Positions 1-16,035 of a DNA stretch of 55,748 nt are shown here, piece by piece. The stretch's first letter is position 1, and the number at the start of each line of letters is the position of its first letter. The translations under genes were made by a program, and so were the position numbers. This DNA is from a virus (lineage: Duplodnaviria > Caudoviricetes), in the IMG/VR virus record IMGVR_UViG_3300044981_000063, positions 1-55,748 of that record. One strand, 5' to 3'. Under the pieces are notes generated by a model. It was given only the letters and a program-made list of their open reading frames with translations. It did not search any database and was not told the origin of the DNA.

Positions 1-117
1 TTCATCAGGCGTGATTATCCAATCCGGCTCGTTGTAAACGTTGCCGTCCAAAAGCAGGAGCGCGCCAGCATCCGTCTTAGCCTTGAGCGCCCTTGCAATA
101 TCGTGAACGGATCGCAT
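1..117 (-). CDS. Hypothetical protein, truncated at left edge (MRSVHDIARALKAK...)
   Basis: ATG at 117 preceded by AGGAG; frame open to position 1. Confidence 0.6.
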   Translation of the reverse strand, partial: MRSVHDIARALKAKTDAGALLLLDGNVYNEPDWIITPDE

Positions 118-131
118 CCCGGCTCCTATTT

Positions 132-428
132 TTACCAAAGGTCTTCTGAGAACAATCGGCCGCCAACATTCAGCGCAGGATGGTCGATCTGTGGTTGCCC
201 TGCGGCCTTCACGATGCGGAGCGCCTTGGTCCGACTTACAAAGCGCCCACGGCTGGTGAGGAAACCTTGAGCGCCGGGACCGATGAATGCATTCTCGTCA
301 ACGGTATCGAATATGTGCCGCATGACGGTGTGATGCCGCGCGGGGGGCGGCAGGTGGTAGACGGTGCCCTTGTAGACACAGGCAGCCGCTACGACTGTCT
401 CAACCGGCTGTGTTTCTAAGACCTGCAC
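132..428 (-). CDS. Conserved phage hypothetical protein
   Basis: ARHH...QGFLTSRGRFVSR..A...LFSEDLW pattern typical of a recurrent phage family; GTG start after AGGAG. Confidence 0.75.
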   Translation of the reverse strand: MQVLETQPVETVVAAACVYKGTVYHLPPPARHHTVMRHIFDTVDENAFIGPGAQGFLTSRGRFVSRTKALRIVKAAGQPQIDHPALNVGGRLFSEDLW

Positions 429-438
429 GAAATCGCTC

Positions 439-675
439 CTATTTTGGTTGTGGTAGTTGGTCAGACCATTCGCGCGGGGCCTGCGTCGGGTCGTACTTGC
501 ATGCTTGCAAGATATTCCCGCAGCCACCCTTCGCTTCGTCATGGTGGCCATCGCGCGTCAGAGAGAAAATCAAAATGATCGCAGGCACCGCGGTGGCTGC
601 GAACCCGACGAATGCCCCATGGATGAACGCGACGGTTTCGCGCGCCTTCCGATCCCGTTCTTCTAAAGTCATCAT
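439..675 (-). CDS. Small membrane protein
   Basis: One hydrophobic segment (FIHGAFVGFAATAVPAIILIFSL); packed in operon. Confidence 0.65.
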   Translation of the reverse strand: MMTLEERDRKARETVAFIHGAFVGFAATAVPAIILIFSLTRDGHHDEAKGGCGNILQACKYDPTQAPREWSDQLPQPK

Positions 676-686
676 CCGGTCGCTCC

Positions 687-920
687 CTACTTCCTCAACA
701 TTGCTTTTAGAACTTTAAGGCTTGCCGTTTCTGCGGCTCGGTCAATCTTGATCCCCAGCGCCTCGCAGATGCGAACCACGGTCGAAAAGCCAGGGTCTTT
801 GACGTGGCCGGTTTCGATTTTGGAAAGGAGTGCGTTCGATATGCCACATTCCTTTTCCAACCGGCGCAGCGTCCACCCTTTACATTCACGGCCTATCGCT
901 AGAAGTTCGCCAAGGCGCAT
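687..920 (-). CDS. XRE-family HTH transcriptional regulator
   Basis: RECKGWTLRRLEKECGISNALLSKIETG..DPGFSTVVRICEALGI. Confidence 0.9.
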   Translation of the reverse strand: MRLGELLAIGRECKGWTLRRLEKECGISNALLSKIETGHVKDPGFSTVVRICEALGIKIDRAAETASLKVLKAMLRK

Positions 921-928
921 CGGGCCTC

Positions 929-1273
929 CTATTCTAAGTATTGTTCAACCCAGACGCCATCAATCAGGCGCAAATGCTTGGGCCGAACGGTTTCAACAAA
1001 AGCAATAATCTCATCGCAGCTTGTCGAGAACCATTCCCGACCACGGACTGCGGATTTCTTAAATTCCTTTATCACCGCGCGCTCTACAATCGAGGGACAA
1101 CCGGCGATCATCAGCCAAACCTTCACCATTCTCACAGGCGGCAGATGCTTGCGCCTTGAAGGCGACGTAAGGTTTTTGATGCGGATTTCCGGCTGGCTCG
1201 TAATGCCGATCTTTGTGTAGGTACCATCACTGGCGACATACAGGTACGGCAGGAGGCCGGTGCTGATACTCAT
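929..1273 (-). CDS. GIY-YIG nuclease family protein (T5orf172-like)
   Basis: YLYV...TKIGIT..PE.RI..L...E...GREWF motifs; ATGA overlap with upstream gene. Confidence 0.8.
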   Translation of the reverse strand: MSISTGLLPYLYVASDGTYTKIGITSQPEIRIKNLTSPSRRKHLPPVRMVKVWLMIAGCPSIVERAVIKEFKKSAVRGREWFSTSCDEIIAFVETVRPKHLRLIDGVWVEQYLE

Positions 1274-1812
1274 TTCGGACGCCTCCCCGCCGTGACGCCA
1301 CGCGCGCCCAAGACCTTGTAGGCCGTAGCTGGCCGCCAACCGTGCATAAGATCAATGGCTTCGGCCACGCTGAACTTGGGATTGCGCCAGATAATGAGGG
1401 CCTCCCGCTCTGCCATCTGGCCGTTTTCCCTGCGGCGCGTAGCGGCCCGCTGGCGGGCAAGTTCGGCCATGTACTCAGGAGAGGGCTTGGGCGGATCAAG
1501 GGCTTCGTTCATCATCTGCACACCACTGGCGCGGCTATTCCGGCCCGTCTCAACATCCAGCACCGTAGCGCCCCAGGAATGCACCAGCTTGATAGCCGCA
1601 TCTATGGAGCGCCTGCCTTTGCCGAAGGCCAGAAGGCCGTCCACGACCCCTAGAAACTCGTCTTGGCGCATCTTGAACTTGCCGGGTGTTTCGCCCTTGT
1701 CTGCCCGGTAAATCTGGCGAGGAAGTAGGCCAGATTCTTCAAGCCGCTTGGCATCCTTCTGGTCGCGGGCATAGCCTCGGACGGCGTGAGGGGCTGTTTT
1801 GGCAGTTTTCAT
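1270..1812 (-). CDS. Degenerate serine-resolvase-like protein with C-terminal HTH, catalytic Ser absent
   Basis: GYARDQ in place of GYARVS; L..SG....IY.ADK; GATVLDVETG; C-terminal SVAEAIDLMHGWRPATAYKVL resembling the resolvase HTH. Confidence 0.6.
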   Translation of the reverse strand: MKTAKTAPHAVRGYARDQKDAKRLEESGLLPRQIYRADKGETPGKFKMRQDEFLGVVDGLLAFGKGRRSIDAAIKLVHSWGATVLDVETGRNSRASGVQMMNEALDPPKPSPEYMAELARQRAATRRRENGQMAEREALIIWRNPKFSVAEAIDLMHGWRPATAYKVLGARGVTAGRRPK

Positions 1813-1818
1813 AGAATA

Positions 1819-1859
1819 TTTCTACACGCATTGACAATCCGCTGTCAAGGGCGTATATG
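1819..1859. promoter_or_regulatory. Divergent sigma70-type promoter pair built on the palindrome TTGACA-N6-TGTCAA
   Basis: Plus: TTGACA 1831-1836, 17 nt, TATATG 1854-1859. Minus: TTGACA 1848-1843, 18 nt, TAGAAA 1824-1819. Confidence 0.7.
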
Positions 1860-1865
1860 AGGCTC

Positions 1866-1985
1866 TGCGGTAGTGGCGTCTAACCAGCGTCCGCACGTAG
1901 CTCAGAGGTAGAGCGAGCGTCGAAAGCCTTATGGTGAGGTGAGTAGCAGCGAAGGTCGGTGGTTCAATTCCACCCGTGTACCGCA
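1866..1985 (+). ncRNA. tRNA-like RNA with canonical D and T arms and a non-canonical anticodon domain
   Basis: TA-GCTC-AGAGGTA-GAGC D arm 1898-1914; GGTGG-TTCAATT-CCACC T arm 1958-1974; CACG/CGTG plus TGCGGTA/TACCGCA terminal pairing. Confidence 0.7.
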
Positions 1986-2009
1986 CTGAATTTTGTAGAA
2001 AGGGCCGCC

Positions 2010-2201
2010 GTGGAAGACGCAACGCCAATCGAAGTAAACTTACCGTTTCAACGAGTGCCGGTATGCGCCTGTGACCCAGGCCACGGCGAGGCGCCTAAAC
2101 TATGGCAGAGATTAGAATGCGGTTTGCGCGGTGGGCCATGTTCGCCACGCTACGCGAAAGATCACCCAGAAGCGGCAGATGCCGCGCAACCTCCAAAATA
2201 G
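2010..2201 (+). CDS. Small hypothetical protein with 4 Cys
   Basis: GTG start after AGAAAGGG; stop 7 nt before next ATG. Confidence 0.5.
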   Translation: MEDATPIEVNLPFQRVPVCACDPGHGEAPKLWQRLECGLRGGPCSPRYAKDHPEAADAAQPPK

Positions 2202-2208
2202 GCCCGAA

Positions 2209-2700
2209 ATGAGCGAACACGCAGCAGCACAGGTCATCGGAGCAGCAACGCTTGGCGCGCGCGGCCCCAGCAGGGCTCTAAAGCCCGACGCACAGGGCTT
2301 CGATGAAGTCAGGATTATTACCGTCCCGCGCTTCAAGGAAAGTGGTCTGAGCGGAGACGAATGGCGCATATCGGCCAGCATCCAAGTTTTCCGCAAGGGA
2401 AACCTGATCCATGAACAGGATTATAGGAACGTTGAAACTGCCGCTGCATATCTCCCCGCGCTTCTGGGAACCCTGAATGATGACGGGAAGGCTTTCTATG
2501 CTGGCGAGGGTGATGTGTGCGACCAGGAGGGCTGCTGCGCGCCCGCTACGGTGACTTACAAGCTCAAGGCACAATATTGCCGGGATGGCCATAAGTCGGA
2601 GTTGTTTGGCCCTACCATCCGCAAGTTCTGTGAGCGGCACAAGCATCGCGGCGATTGCGGATTGGAAGACTCCGACGACAACTACGAACCATTTGTTTAA
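2209..2700 (+). CDS. Conserved phage hypothetical protein with Cys/His-rich C-terminus
   Basis: VPRFKESGLSGDEWRIS...CDQEGC...FCERH.HRGDCGLEDSDDNY. Confidence 0.75.
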   Translation: MSEHAAAQVIGAATLGARGPSRALKPDAQGFDEVRIITVPRFKESGLSGDEWRISASIQVFRKGNLIHEQDYRNVETAAAYLPALLGTLNDDGKAFYAGEGDVCDQEGCCAPATVTYKLKAQYCRDGHKSELFGPTIRKFCERHKHRGDCGLEDSDDNYEPFV

Positions 2701-2712
2701 AAAGGCCCCAAA

Positions 2713-3060
2713 ATGGCTGAACAGACCGAGCGCGATCGCCCATCACGACACGGCCAAGCCCTCGGGGATGCGCTATGGCTCCTGATGGAGGCAGGCAAGA
2801 AAGACTTCCCAGGCACGCCGCCGGAATGCTGTGCAACCTGCGCCTTCCGCCGCGCGGCGGATCATGCAGTTTGCGCAGAGAACACCTCCGTCCAAGGGAT
2901 GGATCGCAAGCCATTGTTCACGCGGCAAGACCAGATCACAGGCCATCAGCTTACTGTAGTCTCCGCGACAATCGAAACATCTTACCAAGCGGCTCACAAA
3001 ATCCTTCGCTTCCGGCATTCGATGCTCCCTATTTATCCCCGACGCATTGCAGCGCCGTAA
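2713..3060 (+). pseudogene. Probably truncated hypothetical gene (protein-like only to CCATCAFR, about 2850)
   Basis: Overlaps the convergent gene 2773-3018 head-on. Confidence 0.4.
2773..3018 (-). CDS. Zinc-finger-like hypothetical protein
   Basis: CFDC...DLVLP..QW..I.P..GGVLCANC; AGGGAG RBS. Confidence 0.65.
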   Translation of the reverse strand: MPEAKDFVSRLVRCFDCRGDYSKLMACDLVLPREQWLAIHPLDGGVLCANCMIRRAAEGAGCTAFRRRAWEVFLACLHQEP

Positions 3061-3217
3061 GTTTATTTCCCAACGCCGTATCAATCTGATGAACGGCAGT
3101 AAGTACGTCCTGCGGCACATACCCACCGCCCATTTCATGCCGAAACAATAGAACATCACGCGCTGTCTTAAGCGCGGACTTTTGTTCTCTGTAACGGGTG
3201 AACTTAAGTGGCATCAA
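3029..3217 (-). CDS. Hypothetical protein
   Basis: AAGGAG RBS, operon packing. Confidence 0.55.
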   Translation of the reverse strand: MMPLKFTRYREQKSALKTARDVLLFRHEMGGGYVPQDVLTAVHQIDTALGNKLTALQCVGDK

Positions 3218-3226
3218 CCGCTCCTT

Positions 3227-3508
3227 TTATGCCGCCGTCTGCGCCGGCAATAGCCGCGAAATCTTCGCGTGGGCCGGACTTTCCCGATCCATTTCCTTGT
3301 AGATTTCCACCACCGTCAGAAGATAGCGCAGCGCGCACCAGGCGAGCGGCGTCGGCCGGAAAGTTGGGTCTTGTTCCCAATTGCGGATTGTGCGGGCGCC
3401 GCGGGAGCCAAAGCCCAGCGCGTCGGATAGTTCATTCTGGGAAAGGCCAAGATGCTCGCGGATCTGGCGAAGCTCGGGGCCGGTTGGAATTGCGCTTGTG
3501 ATCACCAC
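3227..3508 (-). CDS. XRE-family HTH regulator
   Basis: ELRQIREHLGLSQNELSDALGF...RTIRNWEQ. Confidence 0.85.
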   Translation of the reverse strand: MVITSAIPTGPELRQIREHLGLSQNELSDALGFGSRGARTIRNWEQDPTFRPTPLAWCALRYLLTVVEIYKEMDRESPAHAKISRLLPAQTAA

Positions 3509-3575
3509 CGCCAGAGAACCCCCGCTGCAGCCAATATCGTGATTATGAGCATGAGGATGTTGAAATTCCGTTCGC

Positions 3576-3755
3576 TCAAGAAAATGCCCACCCCAGAAAA
3601 GCTATAGCGGACACCAGCAGGCATATGCAGGCCAGGCGGAAAACCTCCAGCCACCAGCCTGAATAGGGCTGTGAAGGCTCCGGTGCATCCCCAGAATGAA
3701 CCCGAACGAATTTGTCCTGATAGTCAGCCATGAGGCTAGGAATGGGGCGGCTCAT
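3576..3755 (-). CDS. Small protein with C-terminal TM helix
   Basis: ATGA coupling; hydrophobic C-terminus. Confidence 0.55.
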   Translation of the reverse strand: MSRPIPSLMADYQDKFVRVHSGDAPEPSQPYSGWWLEVFRLACICLLVSAIAFLGWAFS

Positions 3756-3940
3756 GGGCCATATCCTTCGTCGCGGTCTGCGCAAGCGTCGCACTGATAG
3801 CCTTGTGCTTTGTCAGCCGGCGTCAGGCGGTTCGGTTCCCCGCAGGTAGGGCATAGAAGATTGCGCGGGTTTCTGGGACCGGAGGCGCGCAGCGCGCTCC
3901 GACCGCTCGGGTCTTCAAACATCCTGTTGCGATCGGTCAT
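3752..3940 (-). CDS. Small zinc-ribbon phage protein
   Basis: NPRNLLCPTCGEPNRLT..D...GYQCDACAD. Confidence 0.75.
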   Translation of the reverse strand: MTDRNRMFEDPSGRSALRASGPRNPRNLLCPTCGEPNRLTPADKAQGYQCDACADRDEGYGP

Positions 3941-4230
3941 GGAAATGCCGCCCAAATAGCTGCGCCCTCGATCGCCATAACTTCATCGGCATGATCATCA
4001 GCAATCCGGTGGGCATTGGCAAAGCCGCCGCGAAATGGATCGGAAGTATCGGCGGTATCGTAAACCGTCTCCTGGGCCACAACCCGGAAATGCTCTCCGA
4101 TGCGCCCGTGCTTGACGCTGTAGCGGTGCCATTCGTCGGCATAGGCCTTGGCCTGCTCAAGATCAGGCGAGGGCCCGAAAGCTATCTCGCGCTCTCCTTG
4201 CAGGTTCAGGATAATGTATGTCTTGCCCAT
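3937..4230 (-). CDS. Hypothetical protein
   Basis: GGGAGG RBS before MGKTYII; ATGA coupling downstream. Confidence 0.65.
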   Translation of the reverse strand: MGKTYIILNLQGEREIAFGPSPDLEQAKAYADEWHRYSVKHGRIGEHFRVVAQETVYDTADTSDPFRGGFANAHRIADDHADEVMAIEGAAIWAAFP

Positions 4231-4252
4231 AAAAGCCTCCCGATTGTCTTCA

Positions 4253-4283
4253 AAACTATGCCATAGTTTCGCACAGCGCGCAA
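4253..4283 (-). promoter_or_regulatory. Putative promoter overlapped by palindromic operator AAACTATG-C-CATAGTTT
   Basis: Perfect 8-bp inverted repeat 4253-4269; TTGCGC-17-CATAGT on minus strand. Confidence 0.5.
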
Positions 4284-4312
4284 CGCTAAAGATTTGCCGA
4301 ATTTCCGCTATT

Positions 4313-4795
4313 TTAGACGTTTGGATACCGCATAGGACCGTTAATAACATCGCAAATAATTTCACCTTCTGGGACATCGGATTCCAACCATCCGGGCTGC
4401 CAAAGCTGCTTGGCCTGCATCCACCAGAGCATCGGCCTGCCTGCAAATCGGTCTGGCGCCCGCTGTCCTTTAGCGCGATCGGCTGCATCAGCGCGCGTCC
4501 GCTCAATCGCAAAGACAATATCGCCAATCTTGGGGAATTTCGTGCGCGCCACATCACGACGCCATGTGCCGGCGAACGCCTCAAGCTCCGGCGTGCGGTA
4601 CTTCGCTAAATCCTCCAGGTAATCCGACAGCAGTTCCTTGGCCTGGGCGCGCGTGAAACTCGGCGTCCAGTAATGCGAGCCCAGCTTGAGCAAGATCATC
4701 AGCTTGCGTTCATTTTCCGTTGGATCGCAGTTCGGCTGCGAGGTCGGCTGCACCAGCAAGCCAGTTATCGTTGTTTGATGGTTTTCCGTGTCCAT
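4313..4795 (-). CDS. Replication-associated protein (position of lambda P / helicase loader)
   Basis: Follows initiator-like gene; Y.EDL..Y...W......FPKIGDI pattern. Confidence 0.55.
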   Translation of the reverse strand: MDTENHQTTITGLLVQPTSQPNCDPTENERKLMILLKLGSHYWTPSFTRAQAKELLSDYLEDLAKYRTPELEAFAGTWRRDVARTKFPKIGDIVFAIERTRADAADRAKGQRAPDRFAGRPMLWWMQAKQLWQPGWLESDVPEGEIICDVINGPMRYPNV

Positions 4796-5198
4796 TGGGT
4801 TTGCTCCTGTTTTGCTCTTTTGCGAGCCATCGGTTTATAAAACTCGGCATTCCGGTGAGCGTCTTAGCGTTGCTGCGATTATGGATTAGCCAGCCTTCCA
4901 TGTTGCGAAGGTGCTGGGCGATATCGACGGCGGGGTAAAGCAGGACGAACTTCTGAAATTGGCTTTCATGCACACAATAGAAAACGCGATCTTGATTGGT
5001 GGGCAACGAAATAAAGACTGGGTCATTGATTGCGATCGCATTGGATTTACCGGGGCGCTTTTTCTTGTCTGGCGCTGCGTCCAGATATGCCGTCACCACC
5101 TGCAGGGCCAAAGCCGTCACCGATATTTTTGGGTCATTGATATAGGGGCGCAGGATGGCCTCGGCGGCTAAGATTTGTTCTAGATCCGGCGATTTCAT
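4710..5198 (-). CDS. Replication initiator-like protein (DnaT/DnaD-like C-terminal domain)
   Basis: LYPAVDIAQHLRNMEGWL..N...KT..GM..FINRWLAKEQNR. Confidence 0.65.
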   Translation of the reverse strand: MKSPDLEQILAAEAILRPYINDPKISVTALALQVVTAYLDAAPDKKKRPGKSNAIAINDPVFISLPTNQDRVFYCVHESQFQKFVLLYPAVDIAQHLRNMEGWLIHNRSNAKTLTGMPSFINRWLAKEQNRSKPNGHGKPSNNDNWLAGAADLAAELRSNGK

Positions 5199-5363
5199 TT
5201 AATATTTCCCCTCGTATTCTTTCGGGTCAATTCTTCTTACGCCGGATGCGGGGCCGAACGTTCCCCTTACCTTTGGTCGCGCTGCTTTCGATCCTGCAAT
5301 ATATTGGATCAATTTCGGTGCTTTTCCAGCAGCTCTCAAAAGCTTGTTCTTCCGGTTTTTCAT
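5199..5363 (-). CDS. Small basic protein (54 aa, MKNRKNKLL...)
   Basis: Fills the gap exactly between neighbouring genes with ATGA overlap. Confidence 0.55.
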   Translation of the reverse strand: MKNRKNKLLRAAGKAPKLIQYIAGSKAARPKVRGTFGPASGVRRIDPKEYEGKY

Positions 5364-6124
5364 GCTGCGAGCGCCCTTGGAAACGCTTTGTGTTCGACCC
5401 CATCAACCAAACACCCCGTCGCTTTGCCGCGCACCCCGCCGTTCTGTTTGTGGTGGAAGGCGATACCGAGGTCGCGACACTGGTCCCGGAGATAGCGAAC
5501 TGCATCTATGTCCAGCGGACGAAAGCCGAGGCCGCTCTCGCCGCCCGTGATGATCCAGTCCAGGTTCGCCTTGGCGTCCTTATGGTCAAGGACGATGCGG
5601 CCAAGCAGCGGTTCGGCGCTGACCCCACGCCAGGGTGCCGGTACGGCGGACAGCTTGAGCCTGTCCCGGTCGTATTCCTCTTGGTTGACCATCGTGGCCA
5701 TGATCCCCACATGGGCAAACGGCCAATCCGTGGGGACCATCCTCAAGACGTTCCCGATGCGCTTGGTCAAGAGAATCCACCGCAGGTTCGGCGTCTCGCG
5801 GAGAAGCTGCCATAGGTCAGCGCGCCATTCGTCTGGCACTTCATTGTCGAACACATCGGCCAGCGAGGCACAGAATACGCGCGGGCGGTATCCCGTCTCT
5901 ATGGCCTTCCGGTTCCAGCGTAGTGGCTGCTTCCACGTAGAAACTGATGTTCTGTGCCTTGGCTGCCCTGATCCCCATTTCGCCCAGCCATATCTTTGGG
6001 ACAAAGTCCGAGCATAGCAGTTGTCACAACCGCCGCCGCCAGTCTTTTTGATGCTAACCTCTGTGCATCCTATCCACGGGTTCATTGTACAGTCGCACCA
6101 GGAAATGTTTGTCGTTTCAGCCAT
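5360..6124 (-). CDS. DUF5131 / phage Gp37Gp68 family radical-SAM-like protein
   Basis: T.ISWCD.T.NPWIGC...GCDNCYA; VFCASLADVF; LLTKR; SAEPLLG; WIITGGESG; FHHKQ.GG. Confidence 0.93.
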   Translation of the reverse strand: MAETTNISWCDCTMNPWIGCTEVSIKKTGGGGCDNCYARTLSQRYGWAKWGSGQPRHRTSVSTWKQPLRWNRKAIETGYRPRVFCASLADVFDNEVPDEWRADLWQLLRETPNLRWILLTKRIGNVLRMVPTDWPFAHVGIMATMVNQEEYDRDRLKLSAVPAPWRGVSAEPLLGRIVLDHKDAKANLDWIITGGESGLGFRPLDIDAVRYLRDQCRDLGIAFHHKQNGGVRGKATGCLVDGVEHKAFPRALAA

Positions 6125-6342
6125 CAGATGAGCCCTTCTTTCTCCGCAAACCAGCGGCGGACTTGGAGTTGGATATCATCCCCTTCAGAGCCATCTAAAA
6201 GCCGGTCATCACCGCCATGCACGCAAGACCGCGGGCACCAGCATATCGTGCCATGGTCGTCTTCGATCTGCACCGCCTTTGGCCGCACAGCTAAAACCTT
6301 GCAGGAAATTGTTGTGTATGGATCATCGTAGTCAAATGGCAT
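6124..6342 (-). CDS. Small conserved phage protein
   Basis: KAV......WCPRS.....WFAEKEGLI pattern. Confidence 0.7.
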   Translation of the reverse strand: MPFDYDDPYTTISCKVLAVRPKAVQIEDDHGTICWCPRSCVHGGDDRLLDGSEGDDIQLQVRRWFAEKEGLI

Positions 6343-6646
6343 CAGAAACCTCCGCAGGCTGCATTTCAGCCGCGCGCTGAATTAAACTCTTTATCTGATC
6401 CAGATGCTTTCGTGAAAGATGAAACCATTCTCCGTTACGGCGCTGCTTGTAGAAAATATTGTGGGCGTATTTTTCGATAGAGCGAGCATGTGCTGGTGAT
6501 TTGCATTTAACCGTGCCGAGTAATGTGAGCTTGTATGGGCTGCCGGTCTGGAGCCTTCTAAGCCGTTTTTCTGGGTTCGATGACGAGCCAATTTTTATCC
6601 GCTTTAATTCTTGCTGGCGTAGAGCGGTGATAAAATAGACATACAT
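6332..6646 (-). CDS. GIY-YIG nuclease family protein (T5orf172-like)
   Basis: YVYFI...IKIG.S.NPEKRL..LQTGSP..L.LL...E...H......NGEWF. Confidence 0.88.
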   Translation of the reverse strand: MYVYFITALRQQELKRIKIGSSSNPEKRLRRLQTGSPYKLTLLGTVKCKSPAHARSIEKYAHNIFYKQRRNGEWFHLSRKHLDQIKSLIQRAAEMQPAEVSDAI

Positions 6647-6975
6647 CTAGACTTCTCCATAGCTCTGCATTTTCCGCCTGCCGGAATACCCCGGTCAGAG
6701 ACCGCCTGATGGCCTAGGGGAGATATTCCCCCGCGTACTAACTGATTTGGGCCTCCGCCCCGGCGCTGTTCCCATGTCGCCGTCCACCATCTGGGGATTT
6801 CATCGGCTCCCCAAACATTTTGACTACACAGGCTATGGGCCTCGCCAAAATGCTCCGATACCGCTTTGTAACCGTCTAGGCCGCCCGTTCCATGCCTGGA
6901 GCGCGGGCAATTTTTGACAGAAATAGGCTCTGCCGAGCCGTTGGGACACGACGGGTTTCAAAATGATGGCGGGGC

Positions 6976-7004
6976 TTGTTTTTAGAACGGGTCGGCTATA
7001 AATT
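6976..7004 (+). promoter_or_regulatory. Antisense promoter
   Basis: TTGTTT 6976-6981, 17 nt, TAAATT 6999-7004. Confidence 0.5.
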
Positions 7005-7010
7005 AAGCCT

Positions 7011-7089
7011 TCCACTGCCCGTTCCTGATGCCGCCAGCATCTTGAACCGCCCTCGGTGTCTCCCAAGACTCCGGGGGCTTTTTCTTTCT
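7011..7089 (+). ncRNA. Putative about 80-nt antisense sRNA
   Basis: Promoter upstream; hairpin GATGC/GCATC 7027-7041; terminator at 3' end; opposite to surrounding operon. Confidence 0.5.
7049..7089 (+). terminator. Rho-independent terminator
   Basis: GCCCTCGG-T-GTCT-ccca-AGAC-T-CCGGGGGC followed by TTTTTCTTTCT. Confidence 0.75.
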
Positions 7090-7172
7090 GGTTCCTCCTG
7101 CTCAGTCGGGTGTCTCCCGGGCGATTTGGAACCAATTCACGAAATAACCATAAATCCACTAGCCCTAGGGGG

Positions 7173-7541
7173 TCAACGGCTAGGTGTTGTGGGCTCGCCA
7201 GCGTTAACCACAACTATTGGCGATCTAGCCATTTTGGCGCTGGAACCGGTTAGAGCGGCTCTGGAAGGCCAGCGGAAGGCGGGGTCGTTTGGATGGCGTG
7301 GGCGACCGGCAGAACCTTGCCGCGCCTGGGCGGGCACCAGAATTGATTTGGTGGCTGTTTTGGTCTGATCCTCGGCTTCTAGGGCTTTGAGTTTGGACCG
7401 TAGCGCACTGAGGGTACGCCCCGTAATTGTGGCAATATCGTCTAAAGCGCATATGCCTTCGTAAAAACTCAGCGTCATGGCAGCGCGTAGGTAGAGGATT
7501 TCGACCTTGGACCAGCCGATGTTTTGGGGTGGCCTGGTCAT
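7173..7541 (-). CDS. Hypothetical protein, possible Myb/HTH-like N-terminus
   Basis: WSKVEILYL...DIATITGRTLSALRSKL; ATGA coupling. Confidence 0.6.
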   Translation of the reverse strand: MTRPPQNIGWSKVEILYLRAAMTLSFYEGICALDDIATITGRTLSALRSKLKALEAEDQTKTATKSILVPAQARQGSAGRPRHPNDPAFRWPSRAALTGSSAKMARSPIVVVNAGEPTTPSR

Positions 7542-7759
7542 GTCCTGCCTGCCCGAAACTCCGCGCTGCGGAGCTGGTGGCGCGCATGGCGGTCAGGGTC
7601 GGTCAATGTACATTGATGTACATCGGCGTACATTGGGGGCCTCAAATGCTCTGCCGGCCGTTCACCCTGCAGGTCCAAAATCACCGCCCTTCTCCGCTCC
7701 GCAAGCTGCTCTGCGGCCTTGCTGCGGAAGCGGCGGAAACAATGGCTGCATTTTGGCAT
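7538..7759 (-). CDS. Hypothetical protein
   Basis: AGGAGG RBS. Confidence 0.55.
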   Translation of the reverse strand: MPKCSHCFRRFRSKAAEQLAERRRAVILDLQGERPAEHLRPPMYADVHQCTLTDPDRHARHQLRSAEFRAGRT

Positions 7760-7770
7760 GCGACCTCCTA

Positions 7771-8625
7771 TCAGTGAAGTTCAAAGGCTATCGCGCGGTC
7801 CTTAAGAACTGGTGCCCAACACAAATGGCATTTCCCACAATTAAGGCCTTTGCCGCCTGATTGTTGTGCTGGGCACATCAGGGCATCACCTTTTTCTGCG
7901 ACGGATTTTATGGTGATGGCGCGCGGGCCTGTTTCGGCGTCAGAGGTGCGAACTGCAAATCTATCCCAGCGCGCCTCGCGTAGCTCGTGAACGGCATCGC
8001 CGATCACGGTGCCCTGCTGCCAATGGGTGTAGCCGAAAATATGCAGAGCCGGAAAGAAGTCCAGCGCATTTTCCCAGAACTGAAAATACTTGAGCGAAAT
8101 GAAGTCGCCGAGCACGTGAAGACGAATTACAAAGCCGCCAGGATGCTTGCGCTGCAATTGTCCAAGCTCAAGGCCAAGCTTTGCAATCAATTCTGGCCCG
8201 TATTTATAACGCTTTGCGTGGCCCATCGCATTGCCCATGCAGTTGAGAAAGAGATCGCAGGAGCGCGGGCATGTTTCGCGTTCAACCAGGGTGAGTGAAT
8301 AAATCGGAAAGCCCTTCCACTTGCCCTTCGTCACGACTTTCCCGAGTTTGCGCTGGTTGTCGCCGGATTTCAGCAGCGTTGTTTGGCGAGTGACGGTGTA
8401 GATGCGCCCTTGGAAGACCGTGGTGCCGTTGACGTAGGCAGGGTGGGCTTTCGTGATCGCGCGGCCAGTTCCGCTCGCGTGGAATTGCAGACCAAGCGTC
8501 CGCGACTTCCCGTCTATCGAGCCGCGCGTTCGGCCCATTTCCTTGGCTATCTTGCGAAAATGCCCCCCATGGATATCCCAAAGCCGCCGCAATTCGGCTT
8601 CCTGCGCTGCATCCCATGCTGGCAT
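7771..8625 (-). CDS. GcrA-type HTH fused to GP88-like (radical-SAM-like) domain
   Basis: W......LRRLW......IAKEMGRTRGSI.GK...LGL; N.KLGK; TCPRSC.....C; IRLHVLGDF; GYTH; CPAQ......CGKCHLCW. Confidence 0.75.
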   Translation of the reverse strand: MPAWDAAQEAELRRLWDIHGGHFRKIAKEMGRTRGSIDGKSRTLGLQFHASGTGRAITKAHPAYVNGTTVFQGRIYTVTRQTTLLKSGDNQRKLGKVVTKGKWKGFPIYSLTLVERETCPRSCDLFLNCMGNAMGHAKRYKYGPELIAKLGLELGQLQRKHPGGFVIRLHVLGDFISLKYFQFWENALDFFPALHIFGYTHWQQGTVIGDAVHELREARWDRFAVRTSDAETGPRAITIKSVAEKGDALMCPAQQSGGKGLNCGKCHLCWAPVLKDRAIAFELH

Positions 8626-14845: not shown

Positions 14846-15283
14846 ATGGCCACGTATATTTTCGATATTGACGGTACGTTGGCGGACTGTTCTCATCGGC
14901 TGCACCACATCCAGGCCAAGCCGAAAGACTGGCGCACGTTCTTTTCCGAGTGCCACGGTGATTTCCCCATCCAGCATGTGATCGACGTAGCCCGCTCTCT
15001 TTGGCTGGCGGATAACCAAATCGTCTATGTCTCCGGGCGTTCCGACGAGTGCGAGGAAAAGACCCGCGCATGGCTGTTGAAGCATGGTCTACCAGAAGCG
15101 CCGCTCTATATGCGCAAGGCTGGTGATTATCGCGCCGATGACATCGTGAAGGGGGAACTGCTGGACCAAATCATTGCCGATGATATTCGGCCCGTCATGG
15201 CCTTTGATGACCGCGACCGGGTTGTGGCGATGTGGCGGGCGCGAGGCATTCCGTGCGCTCAAGTCGCGGCGGGAGAATTCTAA
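14846..15283 (+). CDS. HAD-family 3'-phosphatase (T4 PNKP phosphatase-domain-like)
   Basis: FDIDGTLAD; VSGR; T..WL..H; LYMR..GDYR.D..VK; FDDR..VV.MWR..G..C.QVA.G.F. Confidence 0.9.
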   Translation: MATYIFDIDGTLADCSHRLHHIQAKPKDWRTFFSECHGDFPIQHVIDVARSLWLADNQIVYVSGRSDECEEKTRAWLLKHGLPEAPLYMRKAGDYRADDIVKGELLDQIIADDIRPVMAFDDRDRVVAMWRARGIPCAQVAAGEF

Positions 15284-16035
15284 TGGACGCCAAGACCATC
15301 GCAGACGAAAACACCATCCTCCGGGGCCTTGTCGGATCGACGGCACACGGCACCGGCCTAGACGGTCACGAAGACCGCGACGAAATGGGCATCTGCATCG
15401 AGCCGCCAGAAACTGTGGCGGGGATCAGCACATTCGAGCAACACATATTCCGCACCCAACCAGAAGGCGTTCGCAGCGGTCCAGGCGATCTTGACCTTGT
15501 GGTTTATTCGCTACGGAAGTTTTGCCACCTTGCCTACAAGGGCAACCCGTCAATCCTGATGCTGATGTGGCTCCCCGAATATATGACCAAAGAGGTCTTG
15601 GGCGTTCAGCTTATCCAAATCCGGGACGCCTTCGTGTCGCGCGAAGCGGGGTGGCGCTATCTGGGCTATCTGACGGGCCAGCGCGCGGGACTGACTGGGC
15701 AGCGCAGCCCCAAGGTAGCGCGGCCGGAGTTAGTCGAGCGGTTCGGCTATGACACGAAGTATGCCATGCACGCCCTGCGGCTTGGCCTTCAAGGCATCGA
15801 ATACCTGACACACCGCCGAATCAGCATCCCCATCCAAGAGCCTGATCGGGAATATCTGCGGTCTGTGCGACGCGGGGAATTGTCCATGACCAAGGTGATC
15901 GAGGACATTGACAGGATCGCGGCGGAACTGAAAGACCTCACGGAGCGCAGCACAGCGATTGCGGACCTTCCAACCATCAACCGCTTTCTTGTCGAGGCGC
16001 ATCAACGTCATTGGAAAAATCGCGGTCTGGTTTGA
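15283..16035 (+). CDS. Pol-beta superfamily nucleotidyltransferase (RlaP/YcgL-like)
   Basis: VGSTAHGT.....DRDEMG; Y.L.KF..L..KGNP; YDTKYAMHALRL. Confidence 0.88.
   Translation: MDAKTIADENTILRGLVGSTAHGTGLDGHEDRDEMGICIEPPETVAGISTFEQHIFRTQPEGVRSGPGDLDLVVYSLRKFCHLAYKGNPSILMLMWLPEYMTKEVLGVQLIQIRDAFVSREAGWRYLGYLTGQRAGLTGQRSPKVARPELVERFGYDTKYAMHALRLGLQGIEYLTHRRISIPIQEPDREYLRSVRRGELSMTKVIEDIDRIAAELKDLTERSTAIADLPTINRFLVEAHQRHWKNRGLV

Follow-up and report, generated by a model that had tools for sequence, protein, structure and literature searches.

A non-decoding tRNA-Thr-like element, tentatively a rearranged gene remnant, in the predicted early leader of a tailed phage

A tRNA-shaped element near the left end of a tailed-phage genome from soil has, as its leading though tentative explanation, an origin as a rearranged, non-decoding tRNA-Thr-like gene that would still be transcribed as the leader of an early rightward operon. 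Identity with ordinary tRNA genes shows the core of the element to be that of a Thr-type tRNA and establishes its tRNA ancestry. The features needed for decoding and at the acceptor end have been lost, relatives of like build were found in none of the searches, and a good promoter lies directly upstream. The evidence for the architecture, ancestry, and genomic setting of the element is considered here, together with the functional and other readings that compete with decay.

The phage genome and its probable host

The window, i.e., the whole stretch of DNA analysed, is an entire IMG/VR record of 55,748 bases, classed as linear and estimated to be 85% complete, with a G+C content of 53-60%. A single public run, from a DNA soil metagenome that may be the source, holds the stretch, and the listing of holders includes no RNA run; because an independent Logan contig of that run is identical over 1200-2800, with no variants, the sequence is not one assembler's artefact. 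Neither 1-8000, searched in near mode, nor 1820-2000, searched in distant mode, matched any INPHARED phage.

Pfam and PHROG scans, run on a greedy set of 86 ORFs of at least 60 codons from which overlapping ORFs had been dropped, identified tailed-phage proteins (SU10-type portal, capsid, and the large and small terminase subunits) as well as a RecT/exonuclease pair, an endonuclease VII, and a lysozyme. A Cro/CI-type HTH protein is encoded near the left end (687-920), the integrase domain PF00589 has no match in the window at E up to 1, and the phage looks temperate. The host is probably an alphaproteobacterium, since the Thr-type core described below matches tRNAs of Alphaproteobacteria.

Several further genes are of interest in their own right. 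An RlaP-family nucleotidyltransferase is encoded at 15232-16035 on the plus strand (PF10127, E 7e-25; phrog_388, E 2e-55); according to a 2025 preprint, enzymes of this family extend damaged RNA 3' ends by one or two nucleotides and are required for the repair of badly damaged tRNA (PMC12776372). Pfam and PHROG scans of the 86 ORFs detected no RNA ligase domain in the window. Two T5orf172/MUG113-domain proteins are encoded on the minus strand (929-1339 and 6332-6646), one of them about 530 nt from the tRNA-like element; some of the PHROG families that they match carry the annotation homing endonuclease or endonuclease. The early region also encodes a DUF5131 protein (5360-6124, minus strand; PF07505, E 1.5e-60; phrog_2045).

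Architecture of the element

The tRNA family is the sole Rfam family matched in the window. The match, at 1894-1978 on the plus strand, is marginal, as a check put forward with the original prediction brought out: it scores 30.5 bits against a cut-off of 29 (E = 4.8e-6 in a single-family search), and the alignment is local, covering model positions 4-67 only. By comparison, the tRNA matches of one Hyphomicrobiales genome, 46 in all, range from 50.2 to 75.2 bits. The tRNA part of the element is nevertheless far beyond chance. ARAGORN with default settings calls no tRNA anywhere in the window, where a pseudo or undetermined result had been anticipated; with introns allowed it offers only a poor model, in which a 7-nt "intron" falls at 31/32, a G.G mismatch occurs, and the extra arm runs to 17 unpaired nt, and the models obtained with introns or with lowered thresholds are poor and mutually inconsistent.

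All parts of the element lie on the plus strand, and sequence checks bear out every coordinate originally assigned to them. From the 5' side, the Rfam alignment places acceptor positions 4-7 (CACG, 1894-1897, identical to Hyphomicrobiales tRNA-Thr(GGU)), U8-A9 (1898-1899), the D arm (GCTC-AGAGGTA-GAGC, 1900-1914), and G26 (1915). After the segment that stands in place of the anticodon arm (1916-1952), it continues with the variable loop (AGGTC, 1953-1957), the T arm (GGTGG-TTCAATT-CCACC, 1958-1974), and the 3' acceptor strand (CGTG, 1975-1978). The description of the D arm, variable loop, and T arm as textbook is upheld by an alignment that is canonical in these parts; both arms carry the conserved loop bases, as judged from the alignment and from identity to real tRNAs. 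The positions that make the core tertiary pairs of tRNAs are all present (U8, A14, G15/C48, G18-G19, G22/G46, G26/A44, and T54/A58).

The remainder departs from a tRNA. Where the Rfam model has a 17-nt anticodon arm the element has 37 nt, as originally described, and in place of a 5-bp stem with a 7-nt loop the best stem that this segment offers has three of five pairs. A 21-nt insert (1873-1893) interrupts the 5' acceptor strand, and the acceptor has five contiguous pairs out of seven, reaching 7/7 only when 1873-1893 is looped out, in which case GTA at the end of 1866-1872 would supply acceptor positions 1-3. The acceptor had been described as having only CACG/CGTG; these pairs are real, but a contiguous alternative of five pairs exists between GCACG (1893-1897) and CGTGT (1975-1979). 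As also predicted, no CCA is encoded, the 3' side reading ACCG. The element accordingly differs from canonical tRNA (RF00005) in lacking an anticodon arm and CCA and in the non-contiguity of acceptor pairs 1-3/70-72, and it scores 30.5 bits where canonical tRNAs reach 50-75. Judged from its sequence, it is not a tRNA in the functional sense, having neither an anticodon arm nor a contiguous 7-bp acceptor stem, and it is without the parts on which decoding and aminoacylation would depend.

Other RNAs with a tRNA-like shape but no decoding role are YrlA, tmRNA, and the phage immunity RNAs. In YrlA the T arm precedes the D arm; tmRNA has no true D arm; and the immunity RNAs P4 CI and P1 C4 are processed by RNase P, being cut from early leader transcripts. 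Over 1780-2080, no Rfam family other than tRNA matches at E up to 10, the YrlA/Y RNA models included, in keeping with the earlier view that the element differs from YrlA-type Y RNAs. A tmRNA was found neither by ARAGORN -m at a relaxed threshold nor by Rfam. Nothing found here places the element in a described family; if functional, it would, by analogy, work like other non-decoding RNAs of tRNA shape.

The closing helix and the fold

The proposed perfect pairing of TGCGGTA at the predicted 5' end (1866-1872) with TACCGCA (1979-1985), which leaves 21 nt looped out, is confirmed: the two strands are 100% complementary over 7 bp, and this outer helix forms in both the minimum free energy (MFE) and the centroid folds. 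It adds four perfect pairs to the acceptor, reaching into leader and trailer, so that the acceptor-side pairs are Watson-Crick in 11 of 11 cases. In 20,000 random draws, the chance of such a 7-bp helix was 0.00475 at offset 0 and 0.0138 over offsets 0-3, figures that were computed post hoc and amount to one coincidence with a probability of roughly 1%. The stability of the whole unit is not unusual (z -1.38), and a fold constrained to the cloverleaf reaches -36.0 kcal/mol against -41.3 for the MFE structure, i.e., the cloverleaf is 5.3 kcal/mol worse.

Both odd segments can form small structures. Taken alone, the 21-nt insert folds at -4.3 kcal/mol into a hairpin of GGCGU/GCGUC with a 7-nt loop. 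The 37-nt segment folds into three pairs (UCG/CGA), an internal loop, and then the hairpin GCCUUA-UGG-UGAGGU, and the entire 37-38-nt segment reaches -7.3 kcal/mol. This hairpin, noted earlier as GCCTTA/TGAGGT (1926-1931/1935-1940), is present but weak, with a 3-nt loop and six pairs of which two are G-U. The 37-nt region contains tandem duplications of GAGC (twice, 1911-1918) and GGTGA (twice, 1933-1942), and AGCGTC occurs both at 1886-1891 and at 1916-1921; to judge from their sequence, these short tandem duplications in the odd segments look like slippage scars.

The odd segments resemble nothing else in the comparisons made. The 37-38 nt were compared with ten members of the phage tRNA-Thr(UGU) family introduced below and with three cellular anticodon arms; the best p was 0.03, uncorrected over 13 tests, and is not significant. 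Nothing similar to the 21-nt insert was found elsewhere, and an 18-base piece of the odd segments has no exact match in IMG/VR. Several apparent resemblances were discarded: CGTCGAAAGC does not significantly resemble the insert CGTCGGAAGC of the Thr family, nor does the hairpin significantly resemble the anticodon loops of Thr(GGU) or His; the motif CCTYATGGTGARGG common to the element and to two insert-bearing viral genes (L004 and L053) is within chance for the number of comparisons; and a 12-nt repeat of 1908-1919 at the right end of the contig (55731-55742), with an E of 1, does not lie in a tRNA.

Ordinary tRNAs as relatives of the core

The core of the element has close counterparts among working tRNA genes. 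A scan of genome contigs for the combined signature of acceptor 4-7, D arm, and T arm returned four genomes of Alphaproteobacteria/Hyphomicrobiales, in each case at a tRNA-Thr(GGU) gene. The element shares acceptor 4-7/66-69 with Hyphomicrobiales tRNA-Thr(GGU), matches its D arm together with CACG at 20 of 21 positions, and is identical to it over 1957-1978 (22/22); identity with the sampled tRNA-Thr(GGU) genes stops at position 69. In a BLAST search of 1840-2000 against 401 Hyphomicrobiales genomes, 37 had matches at E up to 0.001, all confined to 1943-1982 (the T arm and 3' acceptor strand), and the ten loci fetched from among them are tRNA-His and tRNA-Met genes. G26 and the AGGTC loop of the element are the same in tRNA-His(GUG) and tRNA-Met(CAU). 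Within a comparison that took in the tRNAs of one genome and the ten fetched His/Met loci, the best fit was Thr(GGU) for the 5' part and His/Met for the 3' part.

Viral tRNAs also match closely. Against a phage tRNA-Thr(UGU) family from IMG/VR, the core is identical at 39 of 39 bases (D arm 17/17; variable loop and T arm 22/22), the stretch 1953-1974 being identical at 22/22 in five members (L015, L042, L048, L057, and L146). A sub-family of these tRNAs has, like the element, extra bases in the anticodon region. The family nonetheless keeps a covarying anticodon stem, a UUUGUA loop, and six of seven acceptor pairs, none of which the element has; aligned to the family, it shows no such stem and loop with an insert at 37/38.

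This sub-family merits separate description. Its members, which often lie in Thr-Val-Gly clusters, carry an insert of 10-30 nt exactly between positions 37 and 38 (L042, L048, L057, L015, L072, L116, L146, L069, L070, and L120); the insert varies in length through an internal hairpin, and the anticodon stem covaries, being CCCGC/GCGGT in some members and CCTGC/GCAGT in others. One gene (L285) has the acceptor and stem of the insert family in uninterrupted form, and in one scan 96 of 97 unique Thr genes with the UUUGUA loop were uninterrupted. More broadly, an IMG/VR scan for D and T arms 34-60 nt apart gave at least 107 unique insert-bearing tRNA-like genes (L004-L122). Among the 107 listed, 92 have at least six of seven acceptor pairs and 66 have at least four of five anticodon-stem pairs around the insert; 32 are missed by default ARAGORN, 24 of these with a good acceptor; and the set includes tRNA-Tyr introns of giant viruses or neighbouring tRNAs. 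Three genes have intact acceptors and odd anticodon arms (L005, L025, and L031), and in one phage contig a tmRNA lies beside an odd tRNA-like gene with an anticodon-loop region of 33-34 nt (L053, 7003-7474). The literature searched yielded no account of short inserts within the tRNA genes of phages, which does not imply their absence from print.

Searches for the same architecture

The element stands alone in all of the searches made. The one match in a viral scan that demanded its acceptor and arms was an ordinary tRNA-Val, a second viral pattern scan returned members of the Thr(UGU) family only, and a pattern scan of metagenome contigs had no matches. No second copy of the architecture was found in the 401 Hyphomicrobiales genomes, nor of the element itself within the window. 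Fourteen syntenic loci (two viral and 12 metagenome) were defined by the left neighbour (one viral) and the right neighbour (one viral and 12 metagenome); none contains anything tRNA-like at E up to 1, and their intergenic regions have no DNA likeness to that of the element. Five records related by their large terminase (48-62% identity; three of them complete) contain no tRNA over the cut-off.

Two complete phages among the terminase relatives do carry tRNA 3'-end fragments consisting of T arm, acceptor strand, and CCA (L144, 1500-1570; L145, 1495-1540), which we take to be candidate attP sites in tRNA genes; the L144 fragment directly follows the apparent 3' end of a gene. The element is like such attP cores in being a partial tRNA in a temperate-looking phage, but they are 3' fragments with CCA by an apparent gene end, whereas it has both D and T arms and no CCA.

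The collection of homologues proposed with the original prediction has therefore produced no relative with this architecture among viral sequences, metagenome contigs, the 401 genomes, the 14 loci, and the five phage records. That prediction saw in the element a functional mimic rather than a decayed tRNA. Its description of the element stands; its assignment of function finds no support in conservation, the nearest relatives being ordinary tRNAs and the searches having found no homologue built in the same way. The outcome that it had named as telling against itself, that homologues would prove to be ordinary tRNAs, has come about in part: the core matches ordinary tRNAs, and the odd segments match nothing.

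Promoter, leader, and neighbouring genes

A candidate rightward promoter, aTTGAC-N17-gTATAT, lies at 1830-1858 on the plus strand (aTTGAC 1830-1835; gTATAT 1853-1858). The promoter had earlier been read one base further right, as TTGACA (1831-1836) and TATATG (1854-1859), a register that a scan for E. coli-type sigma-70 promoters omits, position 6 not being T. The sigma-70 consensus of S. meliloti is given as CTTGAC-N17-CTATAT (PMC2873474), and the candidate agrees with it at 10 of 12 positions; the earlier placing of the start about 7 nt after the promoter holds. Within the window, TTGAC-N18-TATAT occurs at a single site when up to one mismatch is allowed, and that site has no mismatches. The element begins about 7 nt past the -10, and transcription is predicted to start at about 1864-1867, at the first base of the closing helix. 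The element is thus predicted to form the 5' leader of an early rightward operon.

The -35 of this promoter lies within a perfect palindrome, TTGACA-ATCCGC-TGTCAA (1831-1848), which is the single exact site in the window; the chance expectation of 1.51 refers to sites with up to two mismatches. The palindrome is operator-like and may serve as an operator. It also offers a candidate -35 to a divergent gene on the minus strand (1270-1812), to which gene and PHROG scans assigned no function. The ATG of this gene (1812) sits about where transcription from a leftward palindrome promoter would start, an arrangement suggesting a leaderless regulator mRNA and an operator shared with the rightward promoter.

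Downstream, the first conserved gene of the rightward operon is Cys-rich and lies at 2209-2700 on the plus strand; it has 12 metagenome relatives, and although homology in a viral relative (L003) begins at window position 2272, the likely start is 2209. Ahead of it is a candidate 63-codon Cys-rich ORF (2010-2201, plus strand), proposed from sequence features: a GTG start, a purine-rich stretch 5 nt upstream, and an end 8 nt before the next ATG. No homologue of this ORF was found at the loci of the relatives. It begins about 24 nt downstream of the element, and about 144 nt separate the predicted transcription start from this first candidate ORF. A scan of the sequence found no terminator or defined 3' end after the element; the region 1986-2275 has no Rfam match and folds ordinarily (z +1.18); and the ORFs overlapping the element (1822-2028, minus; 1959-2201, plus) have no PHROG match.

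Decay, reuse, and other explanations

A tRNA gene gone dead is the reading that we prefer, with the reserve due to a tentative choice. The ancestor would have been a gene of the tRNA-Thr type, such as Alphaproteobacteria and their phages carry. Its structural core (acceptor 4-7/66-69, D arm, variable loop, and T arm) may have been inherited almost unchanged, while the anticodon arm was replaced by or expanded to 37 nt lacking a 5-bp stem and 7-nt loop, and 21 nt were inserted into the 5' acceptor strand. The promoter of the former tRNA gene would still drive the early rightward operon, the remnant being transcribed passively as the first ~120 nt of the early leader, and its changes would be mutational scars (slippage duplications and insertions) in an RNA without a role of its own. 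Such decay fits a marginal, local Rfam score of 30.5 bits where real tRNAs reach 50-75, the absence of a default ARAGORN call, the joint loss of decoding and acceptor-end features, and a core matching ordinary tRNAs (Thr(GGU), His, Met, and phage Thr(UGU)). It also fits slippage-like repeats that fall in exactly the altered parts, the failure of every search to find an element of like build, and a fold that is not favoured (z -1.38; cloverleaf 5.3 kcal/mol over the MFE). It sits less easily with a closing helix improbable by chance (0.005-0.014), with Watson-Crick pairing throughout the 11 acceptor-side pairs, with the ~144 nt that a compact genome has kept between predicted start and first candidate ORF, and with the RlaP RNA-repair nucleotidyltransferase, which implies a phage engaged in RNA-damage conflicts. 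A further difficulty is the bimodal pattern of a perfect core beside wholly replaced identity-bearing parts, a sign of segmental events and not of gradual decay; the same pattern would be expected of a selected mimic. Proximity to the promoter does not discriminate, because a tRNA gene heading an early operon would leave the same arrangement.

It is possible, though to our minds doubtful, that a tRNA gene has instead been reused as a non-decoding, tRNA-shaped module, with only an elbow and an extended acceptor-like helix at the 5' end of an early transcript. It would work by way of host or defence proteins that recognise tRNAs, whether as a decoy or as a signal for processing or stability. The chief grounds for this functional reading are the closing helix and a core left intact next to replaced identity parts. 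In its cis form, which we regard as unlikely, the first 120 nt from ~1866 would be a tRNA-like domain closed by the 5'-terminal heptamer, whose paired 5' end and compact fold protect the early mRNA or whose elbow recruits RNase P or RNase Z to cut the leader. The improbable closing helix beginning at the predicted start, 7 nt after the -10, the complete set of core tertiary-pair positions, and a candidate ORF only ~24 nt downstream would all suit such a domain; yet the element is a singleton that is not conserved at the 14 syntenic loci, its fold is not thermodynamically favoured, and a position close to the promoter is equally expected of a dead tRNA gene. By the measuring-distance rules of RNase P, moreover, the four extra pairs and the 21-nt hairpin would put the measured distance inside a helix, so that cleavage would probably be hindered. 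We think it distinctly improbable that the RNA is released to act in trans, its elbow and acceptor-like helix, free of an anticodon, soaking up a tRNA-targeting defence enzyme or a tRNA-binding factor. Phage tRNAs do counter tRNA-cleaving defences, as described in two papers (PMC10264068; PMC11464382), and an intact elbow beside absent identity elements, a strong predicted promoter, and carriage of the RlaP RNA-repair enzyme (PMC12776372) are what a decoy might lead one to expect. Known anticodon nucleases, however, require the anticodon loop that is absent here, scans found no terminator or defined 3' end, and the searches turned up no homologue and no partner enzyme.

Two further explanations were weighed. 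That the element is an attachment-site relic, i.e., tRNA sequence left from or forming part of the attP of a tRNA-targeting integrase, is very unlikely in our estimation: the CCA-ending tRNA 3' fragments of L144 and L145, the repressor-like HTH gene at the left end, and a record that is only 85% complete leave room for it, but PF00589 has no match in the window at E up to 1, the element includes a D arm of the kind normally absent from attP cores, its identity with sampled host tRNAs ends at position 69, short of the 3' end, and there is no second copy in the window. We give scarcely any credence to a working tRNA from which two intervening sequences (at acceptor 3/4 and in the anticodon arm) are removed post-transcriptionally. 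GTA and CACG would form seven pairs with CGTGTAC once the 21 nt were removed, and many viral tRNA genes have anticodon-loop inserts of 10-40 nt; but no excision yields a 5-bp stem and 7-nt loop, and gene content and tRNA likeness indicate a bacterial host. Bacteria are not known to have the protein splicing endonuclease, and a reading by eye of splicing motifs in the two inserts was dropped, the host looking bacterial.

Significance

The element is short and self-contained. If it is only a broken tRNA gene, as in the preferred reading, it would be an ordinary by-product of the gain and loss of tRNA genes by phages, and its chief use would be as a clue to the host, the core pointing to Hyphomicrobiales-like Alphaproteobacteria. 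Should selection instead have kept it as an elbow mimic, it would offer a rare example, in a bacterial virus, of a tRNA given new use as a structural RNA heading an early mRNA, and would bear on how phages meet tRNA-targeting defences.
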